Positions 36,457-51,031 of a DNA stretch of 64,000 nt are shown here, piece after piece. Source of the stretch: a virus (Duplodnaviria > Heunggongvirae > Uroviricota > Caudoviricetes); IMG/VR virus record IMGVR_UViG_3300031414_000001, positions 176,437 through 240,436 of that record, one strand, 5' to 3'. Below the pieces are notes generated by a model. That model worked only from the letters and a program-made list of their open reading frames with translations. It was not told the DNA's origin and made no database searches. The translations under genes were made by a program, and so were the position numbers. The stretch's first letter is position 1; every line of letters starts with the position of its first letter.

Positions 36457-37749
36457 TTAACGCCTTAAGTTTTTTACCACGACAAAAGCATTACGACCAC
36501 GCTGAAGGACAAAATGTTTTGAATCAATAATGTCCACATCTTCAGTAAAGACGTTTTCTTTAGTATCGTAGAAATCTTTTACCTTGCGACCATTAATTTT
36601 GATCGCACCATTGTTGATGAACTCACGTGCCATCTTACGAGAATCAGCTAAACCTGAATCTACCAGGATTGCTACTAAGTCAAGCGTAGTAGTTTGTTCC
36701 TGTACTTTAAATCCACTGCTGATCATCATGTCAACTGCTTCATCATTCAATTCAACATTCTTACCGAAGAAGAAGTTAGAAAGATCACGAGCAGTATCAG
36801 CCGCCGCAGAACCATGAACAAGTAAGGTCATAGCATGTGCGAACTGTAACTTGACGATATTCGGATCACCATTAGTCATTTCACTTACAATGTCTTCAAC
36901 ACTGAATGTGAAAGGCTTGAAGTACTGGTACAGTTTAGGTACTTCAGTATCTTCAATGTTACGCCAGAACTGAAAGAAATGGTACGGAGTAGTACGTTGA
37001 CCAGTCATCCAGATAGTACCTGATTCTGATTTACCGAATTTAGTACCATCAGCTTTAGTAACAAGTGGAAGGGTGATAACACCACATTCAGCATCATTAC
37101 CATGAAGTTTATGGATTAAGTCAGTACCAGCAATCATATTACCCCACTGGTCTGAACCGCCGATTTGAATTTTACAATTCATTTCAGTGAACAAGTATTC
37201 GAAATCCATTCCCTGAAGAATTGGGTATGCGAACTCGGTAAAGGAAATACCTTGGTCTGGTCGTTCAATACGAGAACGTACTGACTCTTTGTTGATCATA
37301 TTATTCACGGTGAATGCTTTACCGTAATCCCGCAGGAACGTAAGCATGTTAATGTCACGCATCCAATCGAAGTTGTTTACGATTTCAACATCATCACCGA
37401 GAATAGAAGTGATTACAGTACTGATTCCAGCTACGTTACGACTGATTGTATCCCAATCCATCATAGAACGTTCTTCAGCTTTAAAGCTTGGATCGCCAAT
37501 TGAACCAGTAGCACCTCCGACAAGGGCAATAACTTTCACACCATGTTTCTTGAGCACTTTCATTACTGAGAGTGGCAGTAAACTACCGATGTGTAATGAA
37601 TCAGCAGTTGGATCAAAGCCACAATACACTGCTGAACCTTCGTCAAGTAATTTTGACAGTACTGTAATGTCAGTACTTTGATTAATCAAACCGCGTTCTT
37701 GTAACTCTACCAATGCCGAATGCATATTATTCACCTTTATCTTGTTCAA
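36457..37749 (-). CDS. tyrS: tyrosyl-tRNA synthetase
   Basis: YCGFDPTADSLHIGS (HIGH), SFTEFAYPILQGMDF, QIGGSDQWGN, KFGKSE (KMSKS), C-terminal S4 domain. Confidence 0.97.
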   Translation of the reverse strand: MNKIKVNNMHSALVELQERGLINQSTDITVLSKLLDEGSAVYCGFDPTADSLHIGSLLPLSVMKVLKKHGVKVIALVGGATGSIGDPSFKAEERSMMDWDTISRNVAGISTVITSILGDDVEIVNNFDWMRDINMLTFLRDYGKAFTVNNMINKESVRSRIERPDQGISFTEFAYPILQGMDFEYLFTEMNCKIQIGGSDQWGNMIAGTDLIHKLHGNDAECGVITLPLVTKADGTKFGKSESGTIWMTGQRTTPYHFFQFWRNIEDTEVPKLYQYFKPFTFSVEDIVSEMTNGDPNIVKLQFAHAMTLLVHGSAAADTARDLSNFFFGKNVELNDEAVDMMISSGFKVQEQTTTLDLVAILVDSGLADSRKMAREFINNGAIKINGRKVKDFYDTKENVFTEDVDIIDSKHFVLQRGRNAFVVVKNLRR

Positions 37750-47480: not shown

Positions 47481-47507
47481 AAAAGAAAGGAGAGCCGAAG
47501 CTCTCCT
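47481..47507 (-). terminator. intrinsic terminator after Nampt
   Basis: AGGAGAGC-cgaa-GCTCTCCT (cUUCGg loop on the minus strand). Confidence 0.85.
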
Positions 47508-47513
47508 AAAATA

Positions 47514-49028
47514 TTACAAACCTTTGTTCGCACGTTCACGGACTTCATCGAAGTTACTGAGATTGAAAATCTCACCGTTAATGTACACATCAACCATCAT
47601 ATCCTTCAGGAAGTGGTTGATTTCTTGAAGCTCAATGCGTTCAGCAATGATCTTGTGAGAGTTAGTGCATTCATAGGTAGTCACACGACCACGCAGAGAG
47701 CGTTTACCCACATCGGTAATTGGGTCTTTGAACAGATCTTCCCAAGTACCATCAGCCAATTGCTGAGCAGAACCTTTCATTGCGAAAGAATAGGTATCGC
47801 GACCTTTTTCTGGATGAACCAGTTTACCACCCATACCGAACACAAGGTTCTCAATGGAGTAGTTCTTAGCTTCCAGGTTCGCAACGATTTGGCGAATGCT
47901 ATCTTCGTTGATACCATCACCCTGAATTACGCCGATGAAGCTTGGTAGTACTTTGAAGCCATTGACATTCAGAGTAGTACCGAATTTTTCTGCCAGAATA
48001 TCCAGGATCTCAATCGGCATAGTAGTAGCATCACCACTATCTGGACGCATGACAAGACGAGCACCAGGGCAACGTGCCGCGATTTCAAGGATCATCTCTT
48101 TCAGACGAGTACCAATGAATTCACGAACGAAGCGATAAGCATCATACGTATCAATTACTACTGAAACGATTGGTGGAACACCAACTGAACCTTTAGCAAT
48201 ATACGCATCAACTTTTTTCTCCCACAGGCGAACCATTTTCAAAGCCATATTGAAATCGTCGCGTTTGTCTGCGTCAGAGTTAGAGCAGGTAGCACTATGC
48301 TCAGAAGCAGTTACGGAACTCAGATATGCTTTATCAGTGTGGAAGTATTTTTTGATGTAACGATTCGCAGACAGACAATCAGAACCACTGAAGATCATTG
48401 CGTGAGACATACCCGCCAGAATCGCTGATTCATAGCTGGAAGCACCGCGATCACCGAAGTTGTGAAGATGGTAGTCCACGAAGCGATGCCCCGCATGACG
48501 TTCCATAGTGTCTGCCAAAAACTCTTTAATGCTGCGAGCATTACTTGCTACAGTTGTAGGGAACCATACAGCACGTTGTAACTGAGTCTCGATATAACTT
48601 GCGATAACGCAAACACGAGGATCAGTACTGAAAGAACGTACCAGAGGGCAACCAACCGGAACTACAGTACCTTCAGGAACAGCACGGATATGTACAGGAA
48701 TTTTACCGCCATGTACTTCCAGAATATGTTCCCAAAAACCGCGATCAAAATCGTCGCCACGTTGTTCGGTTTCAAGTTCTGCTTCATCAATATCTTCAAG
48801 TGTGATAGTGATGTTCAAGTACTTCTGAATGTAGTACTGAAGACCAGCCATTACAACATGCGTCGCGTATTTGGAAGGTTTACGAGCGATGATGTTACTT
48901 TCAAGAGCTACTACGCCCTCTTTCATCATGAAGCCGTGACCTGTTTTATACGAGTCAACGTTGAGGATAAAGTTTACGTTATCTGAGAAATCAGTAACGT
49001 CATTAAATTGTTTGTTAGTAATAGTCAT
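47514..49028 (-). CDS. nadV: nicotinamide phosphoribosyltransferase (Nampt)
   Basis: LNVDSYKTGH, WFPTTVAS, LHNFGDRG, ASEHS, VIDTYD, MRPDSGD, IQGDG, NLVFGMGG, FAMKGS. Confidence 0.95.
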   Translation of the reverse strand: MTITNKQFNDVTDFSDNVNFILNVDSYKTGHGFMMKEGVVALESNIIARKPSKYATHVVMAGLQYYIQKYLNITITLEDIDEAELETEQRGDDFDRGFWEHILEVHGGKIPVHIRAVPEGTVVPVGCPLVRSFSTDPRVCVIASYIETQLQRAVWFPTTVASNARSIKEFLADTMERHAGHRFVDYHLHNFGDRGASSYESAILAGMSHAMIFSGSDCLSANRYIKKYFHTDKAYLSSVTASEHSATCSNSDADKRDDFNMALKMVRLWEKKVDAYIAKGSVGVPPIVSVVIDTYDAYRFVREFIGTRLKEMILEIAARCPGARLVMRPDSGDATTMPIEILDILAEKFGTTLNVNGFKVLPSFIGVIQGDGINEDSIRQIVANLEAKNYSIENLVFGMGGKLVHPEKGRDTYSFAMKGSAQQLADGTWEDLFKDPITDVGKRSLRGRVTTYECTNSHKIIAERIELQEINHFLKDMMVDVYINGEIFNLSNFDEVRERANKGL

Positions 49029-49030
49029 AT

Positions 49031-49079
49031 CTAAGACTCCCTTAGTTATTAAGTTTAAGTGAAAGCTACAACGCTTTCA
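49031..49079 (-). promoter_or_regulatory. two-hairpin leader motif, copy 1
   Basis: TGAAAGC-GTTGTA-GCTTTCA ... ACTAAG-GGAGT-CTTAG upstream of the Nampt ATG. Confidence 0.7.
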
Positions 49080-49087
49080 TTATTTGG

Positions 49088-49606
49088 TTATACCAAATGC
49101 TGTATTAAATTTACTGGTATTTTAGCCATTAAATTATTGGGTTCAAACATATTAGAATTCAACCTAATATATGAACGTATATCATACGGATTGTTGTACA
49201 GTTTCAACGCAATTGCGTCAAGTGAAAACTCGTATTCATCACCATATTCATCAGATTCTCGGTAATGAATTGTACCATCGTCCTGTACTACTATGTCTGA
49301 TATATTACGCGACACAAACAAATTGCCTCGATCTATCTGCCCGAAGTACGTTTGTGCCATTCGATCACTCTTATGTGGTACTAGACCATTATTTGTTCCA
49401 TAAGTCCGTAGTGCGAATACACGATTAGTTTCTTCAGTTTCCGGTTCACTCAGAACCATCTTAATCAGATATTGAATCGGGTCAATATGCTCAATTTTAT
49501 CAGGAAGTTCATAAGCTGTCAAGCTAATTTTTTGAATAAAATCACTGCGATTATCAGAAATGTATTTCATTTCTTTGTAAAAGCTTTCAGGTTGACAAAA
49601 TAACAT
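49088..49606 (-). CDS. hypothetical protein
   Basis: 172-aa ORF between the two NAD genes. Confidence 0.55.
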   Translation of the reverse strand: MLFCQPESFYKEMKYISDNRSDFIQKISLTAYELPDKIEHIDPIQYLIKMVLSEPETEETNRVFALRTYGTNNGLVPHKSDRMAQTYFGQIDRGNLFVSRNISDIVVQDDGTIHYRESDEYGDEYEFSLDAIALKLYNNPYDIRSYIRLNSNMFEPNNLMAKIPVNLIQHLV

Positions 49607-49621
49607 AACATCCTCTCAATT

Positions 49622-49647
49622 AAAATGGAGTACCTTTCAGTACTCCA
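49622..49647 (-). terminator. intrinsic terminator
   Basis: TGGAGTAC-ctttca-GTACTCCA. Confidence 0.65.
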
Positions 49648-49653
49648 AAACTC

Positions 49654-50781
49654 TTACAGAATACCCAGGAAAGTATCAATGATACTCAAATGGTCTTCAA
49701 AGAATTTATCACGGTTCTTAACCAACTCACCAAGCGGCATCCAGAATGCTTTTTCAGCATCATCAGAACCTTTTACTTTTGGTAAAGTATTGTCCTGAAG
49801 CTGGATATGAGCACAGCGAGTAATGATACGCCAACGAAGTGAACGATTGAAATCACCGAATTCCATACTTTCACGGATTGAACCTTCCAGTACTTTCAAC
49901 GGAACATCAATCTTCGTTTCTTCTTTGAGTTCACGAAGTGCGGTTTGAACCTGATCTTTGTCTTGCCATGCGTCGAAGAACCCGCCAGGAAGTGCGTATA
50001 AACCTTTACCTGGGAAAGTACGACGCTTAACCAACAGAACGTGACCAGCACAAATTACCAGAGCATCACCCGTCAGGAACGGAATGTTGTCATACGGCAG
50101 TTTTTCTTTCATCTCTGAACGATAACGTTGTACGAAGTTGAATTCGCCAATCAGGTTATCGAACACCATTGGTTTAGTTTTCATGAACTTCTCAAGAAAC
50201 TCTTTAGTTTCTTCCGGCAATTCTTCTGGTACTTGTTTAGTACTGAAGAATTGCTGACGCATCGCAGTACTGTTGATTGTTACTTTTACAGATTTGTCGC
50301 GATGTTCGACATAATCTTTATGATCATAGTCGTCTGACACTGTTTTAATCACAGTTTGTTCTGGAATAAAATCTTGCTGCCATTGCGGGAAGAAGTTCAG
50401 GTAGAAAGTACTTGCGTCAGCTTCTTTCTGACAACCAGTAATGAAAATGTTTTCACTCTGAGTTACAGATTTCACTTGCTCATGTACTTCCATCAGCCAT
50501 TTGCTGTTGTTATATACGTAGTCGTGGATTGGAAGGATATTAACCTTAACCGAACGCCCTTTAGCCCATTCTGCTTGTGCTAAACGACTAGACATAGCAT
50601 CCAGTACTTGCTTGCGTTCATCAAACGTGAACGGATTCTTTGAATCACGTGCCATGTCAGAAGAACCAACCAGGATTACCAAACGGTCTGAATTTTCTAA
50701 TGCGTGTTTAATGGTTGCTTCATGACCAGCATGTGCCATTTGGAAACGACCAATATATACATAAACTTTTTCGTTTTTCAT
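49654..50781 (-). CDS. bifunctional NMN adenylyltransferase / ADP-ribose Nudix hydrolase (NadM-Nudix, NatV-like)
   Basis: YIGRFQMAHAGH, SKNPFTFDER, INSTAMR; ALPGGF...TALRELKEET Nudix box; FEDH. Start MKNEKV at 50781. Confidence 0.93.
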   Translation of the reverse strand: MKNEKVYVYIGRFQMAHAGHEATIKHALENSDRLVILVGSSDMARDSKNPFTFDERKQVLDAMSSRLAQAEWAKGRSVKVNILPIHDYVYNNSKWLMEVHEQVKSVTQSENIFITGCQKEADASTFYLNFFPQWQQDFIPEQTVIKTVSDDYDHKDYVEHRDKSVKVTINSTAMRQQFFSTKQVPEELPEETKEFLEKFMKTKPMVFDNLIGEFNFVQRYRSEMKEKLPYDNIPFLTGDALVICAGHVLLVKRRTFPGKGLYALPGGFFDAWQDKDQVQTALRELKEETKIDVPLKVLEGSIRESMEFGDFNRSLRWRIITRCAHIQLQDNTLPKVKGSDDAEKAFWMPLGELVKNRDKFFEDHLSIIDTFLGIL

Positions 50782-50783
50782 TT

Positions 50784-50865
50784 CTAAGACTCCCTTAGTC
50801 ATTATTGAAACAAGGCTACAACGCCTTGATGTGTACATTATAGCATAAAAATCAACGGCGTTCCA
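50784..50865 (-). promoter_or_regulatory. promoter TGGAAC-N17-TATAAT plus two-hairpin leader motif, copy 2
   Basis: -35 at 50860-50865, -10 at 50837-50842; CAAGGC-GTTGTA-GCCTTG (50811-50828); ACTAAG-GGAGT-CTTAG (50784-50799). Confidence 0.75.
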
Positions 50866-51031
50866 AGTTTTTTGGGTCGCTGATTCGCTAGAACGAGGTG
50901 ATATTATCAAATAGCTGCCTGAACGTCAAGGACTTTTTGGGGTTCAAAAGTAAATATTCATAGCAATAGCTAGTTTTCGGTATCTTAATAAATACTGAAT
51001 ATAATTATATAACTTTCTTAGGAGACTAAAA

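Follow-up and report, generated by a model that had tools for sequence, protein, structure and literature searches.

A conserved two-hairpin RNA leader at the NAD+ salvage genes of Rak2/GAP32-like jumbo phages, unrelated phages and bacteria

We analyzed a 64,000-nucleotide stretch of phage DNA (IMG/VR record IMGVR_UViG_3300031414_000001, positions 176,437 to 240,436; hereafter the window), in which the two genes of a nicotinamide adenine dinucleotide (NAD+) salvage pair, Nampt and NMNAT-Nudix (NadM-Nudix), are each preceded by a leader of two hairpins. The upstream hairpin, H1, is followed by an A/U-rich linker and a second hairpin, H2, whose loop presents the Shine-Dalgarno sequence ahead of the start codon. 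As compensatory changes keep the pairing and all matches are strand-specific, we are nearly certain that this leader is a real, conserved RNA structure. Its end always lies 0–3 nucleotides from the start codon, which argues for translational rather than transcriptional control. On these sequence grounds the leader quite probably acts on translation initiation, and it probably sets the amount of enzyme that is made. The parts of the two leaders in the window are as follows.

50811-50828, minus strand: H1 of the NMNAT leader, a 6-bp stem (CAAGGC/GCCUUG) with the hexaloop GUUGUA (fold -8.7 kcal/mol, z -4.1).
50800-50810, minus strand: A/U-rich linker of the NMNAT leader, 11 nucleotides, conserved neither in sequence nor in length.
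50784-50799, minus strand: 16-mer with H2 of the NMNAT leader, CUAAG GGAGU CUUAG, whose loop holds the Shine-Dalgarno sequence GGAG (seen in the sequence, the fold and the match to covariance model R2, see below).
49060-49079, minus strand: H1 of the Nampt leader, a 7-bp stem (UGAAAGC/GCUUUCA) with the hexaloop GUUGUA (fold -8.2 kcal/mol, z -4.4).
49047-49059, minus strand: A/U-rich linker of the Nampt leader, 13 nucleotides, seen in the sequence.
49031-49046, minus strand: 16-mer with H2 of the Nampt leader, CUAAG GGAGU CUUAG (seen in the sequence and the match to R2).

This layout, with linkers of 11 and 13 nucleotides and an identical 16-mer 2 nucleotides 5′ of each ATG, agrees throughout with the preliminary description of this DNA, and the minimum-free-energy folds of both leaders are exactly H1 plus H2. 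In a related strain (run X8), changes at linker positions 50804 and 50809 leave both hairpins of the NMNAT leader intact. The leader had also been described as absent before other genes in the window, and a scan of the 64 kb with R2 indeed matches just these two sites. A search of the full genome, likewise proposed there, found the 16-mer and the CTAAG-N5-CTTAG hairpin twice each, at NMNAT and Nampt only. Hairpins with a GNNGTA loop are by themselves not rare, numbering 43 in the genome versus 14–33 in shuffles; the specific unit is the composite of H1, H2 and ATG, which is unique to both NAD genes in the genome. On the gene strand, a terminator scan called only the hairpins at 49626-49647 and 47488-47507 terminator-like, and neither H1 nor H2. 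As a separate observation, a hairpin with a similar loop (GAGGGC GUAGUA GCUCUU, with two G-U pairs) lies at 48903-48920 on the minus strand, within the Nampt coding sequence and about 110 nucleotides past the ATG.

The same leader stands before both NAD genes in the phages GAP32, CBB, BF, Yen9-04 and RaK2 and in several IMG/VR contigs. This allowed the compensatory changes noted between the two window stems to be followed across the clade, where they hold: 20 distinct leaders contain 10 different H1 stems, and all are fully paired. Double changes occur in five of the six pairs and in 30 cells, compared to 8.5 in shuffles, and pairing reaches 98% versus 20–53% when the partner columns are slid. 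The H1 loop reads GWWGUA throughout, the one exception being GCGGA (locus L060). H2 is invariant in the clade except in the RaK2 NMNAT leader, in which the middle pair is flipped (CUUAG ... CUAAG) and the loop has 6 nucleotides. The 16-mer is retained in genera whose flanking DNA has diverged. In Kae01-like jumbo phages (L057, L058, L060 and L006), the NMNAT leader has both hairpins and the Nampt leader has H1 but lacks the H2 16-mer; in the Nampt leaders of L058 and Kae01 itself (L006), the Shine-Dalgarno sequence GAGG belongs instead to another small hairpin, within its 3′ arm.

In distant phages (Nampt identity 30–40%), the same architecture stands before both genes in very different sequences, for example GAACCC AGUGA GGGUUC followed by ACAC GGAGA GUGU. 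The BcepSauron leader has an H1 with the loop AAGA and then GCAAC AGGA GUUGC, and that of YB07 reads AGGAA GGAGU UUCCU; YB07, Matisse and locus L047 have leaders with H2 only. Among 79 diverse IMG/VR loci taken by Nampt alignment, a hairpin with the Shine-Dalgarno sequence in its loop, 0–6 nucleotides 5′ of the start, precedes Nampt in 67 of 77 cases and NMNAT in 45 of 54. Among other open reading frames (ORFs) the number is 53 of 771, which makes 87% for Nampt versus 7%, and several of these 53 are NMNAT genes that the search pattern had overlooked.

Alignment of all leaders with MAFFT was of no structural use, and the leaders were aligned by their fit to a covariance model. The first model, R1, was built from a seed of 7 unrelated Nampt leaders and detected 78 sites; all lie on the gene strand, and the window Nampt leader (17.6 bits) is among them. 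In the resulting alignment 96.1% of cells pair, versus 58.3% when shuffled and 30–50% in slid controls, and 306 cells carry double changes (80 in shuffles), with 13 of 13 pairs covarying; these numbers are somewhat inflated because the alignment was fitted to the structure. When run on 735 kb of phage DNA, the model R2, rebuilt from the 78 rows, detects 104 sites and none antisense, about 62 of them before Nampt, about 35 before NMNAT and one before a phage nadA gene. With E-values that are rough for both models, and with the window Nampt leader among the rows of R2, this leader (49026-49072) scores 25.7 bits (E 0.0046), the top match of the whole genome, and the NMNAT leader (50779-50819) scores 19.6 bits (E 0.17). 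In 80 bacterial Nampt loci (547 kb), R2 gave 53 matches, all on the sense strand; the leaders ahead of nampt and nadM-nudix genes come from alpha-, beta- and gamma-proteobacteria and from Campylobacterota. Taken over phages and bacteria, 157 of 157 matches lie on the sense strand, and nearly all stand immediately ahead of Nampt or NadM-Nudix.

A further R2 match in this phage genome, C1:169771-169818 on the minus strand (23.5 bits, GAAGGAA ACAGA UUCCUUC), lies 6.6 kb outside the window. This conserved hairpin precedes an ORF of 80 amino acids; a terminator and a macro-domain (ADP-ribose-related) gene come after that ORF. Its counterparts in GAP32, BF and Yen9-04 have the loop ACAAA or ACAA and no H2. 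Since relatives do not keep the loop G and H2 is absent, we did not accept it, and it is probably not a true member of the family.

The family consensus comprises an H1 with a variable stem, a G-C closing pair and a loop that is usually AUAGA (variants AGAGA, AGUGA, GUAGU, ACAGA and AAAGA), a G-poor linker of 0–31 nucleotides, and an H2 with an A/U-rich stem of 4–7 bp, an A-U closing pair and a GGANN loop containing the Shine-Dalgarno sequence. Position 4 of the H1 loop is G in all 79 loop-bearing rows of the phage alignment. The loop AUAGA is identical in Campylobacterota, in alpha-, beta- and gamma-proteobacteria and in unrelated phages, whose Nampt proteins are each about 36–46% identical to that of the window. 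Both window leaders share with the family the position before an NAD gene, an H2 with a GGANN loop and the covariance-model score. Their H2 is closed by G-C instead of A-U. Their H1 stem is present and covarying, and it carries the hexaloop GUUGUA, compared with the pentaloop pattern R-N-W-G-W of the family, so that H1 agrees in position and architecture but not exactly in its loop; the nearest loops are GUUGA (Variovorax), GUAGU (phages) and GCGGA (L060). Because GUUGUA is closest to the Variovorax and GUAGU forms, we treat the window leader as what appears, by sequence, to be a clade-specific hexaloop variant of a widespread element and not a separate invention. The leaders had no match in Rfam, either in the window (E up to 10) or at four other leader loci (E up to 1). 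In the literature on NadV/NatV, on NARP and on riboswitches associated with Nampt or nadV, we found no description of such a leader.

Further genes bear the leader. In a 360-kb phage contig (L150), the quinolinate synthase gene nadA (Pfam 2e-84) is preceded by a complete two-hairpin leader (37131-37178) under a TTGACA/TATAGT promoter of its own. This is the third copy in that phage, 300 kb from the salvage genes, and with it the regulon covers de novo NAD synthesis as well as salvage. At four loci (L087:1630-1953, L104:1598-1921, L107:662-985 and L127:595-918), the leader precedes a 108-amino-acid protein of no known function (phrog_12218) with the conserved stretch ESPDHQLAKELH. Two gamma-proteobacterial loci (L188:5447-6530 and L220:4513-5607) have a third leader copy before an SPFH/Band-7 gene just 3′ of nampt. 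At another locus (L040:3113-3439), a transfer-messenger RNA gene of the alpha-proteobacterial, permuted type (Rfam, 142 bits) lies directly 3′ of a phage Nampt gene.

Upstream of the leaders, the two genes differ. The preliminary description had given both a -10 box, TATAAC or TATAAT, followed by exactly 6 nucleotides and the hairpin. The box stands for NMNAT, where TATAAT (50837-50842) belongs to a conserved promoter, and falls for Nampt, where TATAAC is no promoter element; the gaps to the hairpin measure 8 nucleotides for NMNAT and 7 for Nampt. Two features were identified here.

50837-50866, minus strand: promoter of NMNAT-Nudix, a sigma-70-type early promoter TTGGAA-18-TGnTATAAT (10 of 12 matches plus the TG extension).
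49082-49098, minus strand: hairpin H0, UUUGGU AUA ACCAAA, around the stop codon of a 172-amino-acid ORF and just 5′ of the Nampt H1 (part of the minimum-free-energy fold).

The -35 sequence TTGRAAC and the extended -10 sequence of the NMNAT promoter are conserved in GAP32, CBB, BF and Yen9-04, and the transcript should begin 1–2 nucleotides 5′ of H1. Genome-wide there are 14 near-identical early promoters (TTGRAAC, about 17 nucleotides, TGnTATAAT), two of them in the window (50837-50866 and the region of 1735). The transcript starts of the other 13 have no comparable compact hairpin like H1. Before Nampt, TATAAC contains the TAA stop of the 172-amino-acid ORF (which ends at 49088), lies inside H0, and reads CATAAG in phage BF. 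H0 shows a compensatory change (AUGGC/GCCAU) in BF despite the coding overlap, and a U-G pair in Yen9-04. A promoter-like TTGACA/TAAAAT inside the 172-amino-acid ORF is not conserved in GAP32, CBB or Yen9-04 and was rejected as an internal promoter. As TATAAC is no promoter element and this internal site is not conserved, Nampt is likely transcribed by read-through. Contigs from RNA libraries (three metatranscriptome runs from two studies) span fragments of the coding regions only, and not the leaders.

The source phage is a Rak2/GAP32-like jumbo phage with a genome of 370,971 bp; the records that come nearest to it are those of Erwinia phage Kaldavass (94.7% identity) and Xanthomonas phage XbC2. 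Those hosts of the clade that are named are Enterobacterales. Around the leaders, the following genes and signals are found.

49654-50781, minus strand, ATG at 50779-50781: NMNAT-Nudix gene, NadM-Nudix / NatV-like (Pfam CTP_transf_like 6e-9, NUDIX 3e-13).
49626-49647, minus strand: terminator-like hairpin 3′ of NMNAT, GGAGUAC ... GUACUCC followed by a U run (terminator scan).
49088-49606, minus strand: ORF of 172 amino acids between NMNAT-Nudix and Nampt, function not assigned (phrog_25832).
47514-49028, minus strand, ATG at 49026-49028: Nampt gene, encoding a NadV-like nicotinamide phosphoribosyltransferase (Pfam NAPRTase 2e-31, NAMPT_N 7e-12).

NMNAT-Nudix and Nampt correspond to the NARP2 or KVP40 NadV-NatV NAD+ salvage pair (10.1101/2024.02.11.579819). 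The stem GGAGUAC/GUACUCC of the terminator-like hairpin is kept in all relatives, with a loop of UGAAAG, UUCG or 8 nucleotides. The 172-amino-acid ORF sits between both NAD genes throughout the clade except in RaK2, which has a 341-amino-acid zinc-finger protein at this place. A Pfam search with its product gave no match, and look-ups of this and of the 108-amino-acid protein in the ESM Atlas returned no result. The AlphaFold model of the 172-amino-acid protein is confident (predicted local distance difference test score 88), but its matches, to nucleotide pyrophosphatases of the ITPase/Ham1/Maf type, are only weak (E about 4e-3, template modelling score at most 0.4). As far as this model goes, the protein may be a third nucleotide-handling enzyme of the NAD module and not a regulator.

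For the mode of action we tentatively favor a shared translational operator that works with a protein factor. H2 is a weak 5-bp hairpin that displays the Shine-Dalgarno sequence GGAG in its 5-nucleotide loop, with its 3′ arm occupying the spacer to the AUG. H1, further upstream, is stable, and its loop shares with that of H2 the pattern of purine, N, N, G and W. Such a common pattern is expected for two sites of one binder. A factor specific for NAD status would bind these loops, with H2 as the essential and H1 as an auxiliary second site. When bound, it would keep H2 closed and thereby bar the 30S subunit from the Shine-Dalgarno sequence; without it H2 would melt, and both enzymes would be translated together. 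On its own H2 appears too weak to keep the ribosome out, and this hints at a stabilizing partner. The simplest candidate for the factor would be either oligomeric enzyme, which would regulate the mRNA that encodes it as well as that of the other enzyme.

That the effector is a protein is a choice we make with some reserve, and from sequence features: the hairpins are plain, versions with H2 only exist, and loop variants are specific to clades. Conserved loops joined by a linker that varies freely between 0 and 31 nucleotides are also in line with it. The loop variants of a clade shift together in both genes, GUUGUA here and AAGA/AGGA in BcepSauron. NadM-Nudix is present in all 7 complete genomes searched whose Nampt gene bears the leader, and also in 2 of 3 such records that are incomplete; co-occurrence does not separate the candidate regulators, because both enzymes are found in every complete genome searched. 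Several points weigh against a protein-operated switch. No RNA-binding domain was recognized in either enzyme with Pfam, and a loop as uniform across phyla as AUAGA would rather be expected where the ligand is a small molecule. Taken by itself, H2 has little stability (-2.7 kcal/mol, z only -1.4) and could in principle be a passive tuning element. Within the clade its pairing is backed only by the wider family and the single flipped pair of RaK2.

A riboswitch is possible, although we regard it as rather unlikely. In such a case the leader would bind a metabolite of the NAD pathway (NAD+, NMN, ADP-ribose, nicotinamide or phosphoribosyl pyrophosphate (PRPP)), the two similar loops forming or stabilizing a pocket and the ligand locking H2, so that translation would be off at plentiful NAD+ and released once a defence system depletes it. 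The leader might then represent a third, structurally minimal class of NAD-related riboswitch, in which tandem hairpin loops sense NAD+ or a fragment of it. What speaks for this is that one loop consensus recurs before several genes of one pathway (Nampt, NadM-Nudix and nadA), both among unrelated phages and across several bacterial phyla, and that the position in the 5′ untranslated region at the ribosome-binding site is constant. Two hairpins with a variable linker also recall the guanidine-II riboswitch. However, the architecture is scant: the two hairpins are plain, and they show neither an internal loop nor a junction nor any detectable pseudoknot. By eye there is no consistent complementarity of the H1 loop with the H2 loop, the linker or the H2 arms, and H1 and H2 loop types are not associated. 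H1 is moreover absent from some leaders, the loop varies by clade (GUUGUA, AAGA, GUAGU) and Rfam gave no match. Tandem look-alike domains are nonetheless a trait of the NAD+-I riboswitch (PMC7749635). If a riboswitch it is, Nampt, NadM-Nudix and sometimes nadA would be translated only at low NAD+, e.g., after TIR or SIR2 defence, and the Rak2-like hexaloop would be a variant of altered tuning or ligand.

A passive leader without a specific ligand, in which H1 shields the 5′ end of the cistron from decay and identical H2 hairpins set a matched, moderate translation, seems improbable to us. H1 does start 1–2 nucleotides from the predicted NMNAT transcript start and, in many other phages, 7–9 nucleotides past a -10-like box, H2 is weak, and identical ribosome-binding modules would equalize initiation. 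This leaves unexplained why the H1 loop is conserved across phyla and why the leader tracks NAD genes so closely, and the other 13 promoters of the same class lack such a hairpin. We give very little credence to repression of both genes by the global host regulator CsrA/RsmA through an A-N-GGA site, its classical target, in the H2 loop over the Shine-Dalgarno sequence. The H2 consensus A-GGANN-U and the enterobacterial hosts of the clade would suit it, and some NMNAT leaders (ACAAA GGAUU UUUGU) would come near the consensus obtained for CsrA by systematic evolution of ligands by exponential enrichment. Yet H1 has no GGA (AUAGA, GUUGUA), so that the leader lacks a pair of GGA sites, CsrA gives no reason for the restriction to NAD genes, and the leader occurs in many alpha- and beta-proteobacteria. 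Scarcely credible, finally, is a DNA operator for an NrtR- or NadR-like transcription factor, or a remnant of chance or duplication. H2 is also a DNA palindrome, CTAAG-N5-CTTAG, and invariant in the clade, but the stems of H1 and, family-wide, of H2 change freely with pairing kept, the matches are confined to the sense strand, the Nampt copy has no conserved promoter, and the 16-mer is retained between diverged flanks. Of the dedicated NAD cis-element suggested at the outset, the RNA-level, covarying element tied to Nampt, NadM-Nudix and once to nadA is thus retained, and the option of a DNA operator is disfavored.

Nampt and NMNAT-Nudix together form NARP2, a recently recognized counter-defence of phages in which NAD+ is rebuilt at the cost of PRPP. 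The leader described here is a strongly covarying and pathway-specific RNA, common to unrelated phages and to bacteria of several phyla and outside Rfam. At only about 50 nucleotides, it is a candidate for a new class of NAD-sensing riboswitch or for an enzyme-operated translational operator. It also flags further members of the regulon, namely nadA, small proteins without known function and the SPFH gene. The work on NARP2 concerns the enzymes, and its text contains no hairpin, untranslated region, riboswitch or promoter (10.1101/2024.02.11.579819).

Among known systems, the NAD+-I riboswitch (nadA motif) places in the 5′ untranslated region a tandem of two stem-loop domains that resemble each other; the NAD+-II riboswitch (pnuC motif) is short, masks the ribosome-binding site and, by prediction, switches off an NAD-related gene (PMC7749635). 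With NAD+-I the leader has in common that it is a cis-element of NAD biosynthesis with tandem domains; NAD+-I has bulged stems and conserved internal loops, whereas the leader has plain hairpins and conserved terminal loops. NAD+-II uses P1/P1a and a pseudoknot pairing with the ribosome-binding site and stands before pnuC in streptococci, whereas here the site lies in a hairpin loop. No internal loops or pseudoknot were seen in the window and family leaders, and no Rfam model of NAD+-I or NAD+-II matched. The guanidine-II riboswitch (mini-ykkC) consists of two small hairpins with conserved loops and a variable linker at the ribosome-binding site, and its ACGR tetraloops pair with each other. 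These tetraloops are closed by C-G, in contrast to the penta- and hexaloops of the leader (AUAGA/GUUGUA, GGAGU), which have no mutual complementarity and set it apart from this class. Several proteins, namely E. coli ThrRS on thrS, T4 gp43 and RegA, and the MS2 coat protein, each an enzyme or a dimeric protein, bind hairpins with a specific loop at or next to the Shine-Dalgarno sequence or the AUG and block initiation. By analogy, operators of the thrS and T4 gene 43 type would be the closest functional likeness, from which the leader differs by its far wider span over phyla and phage families.

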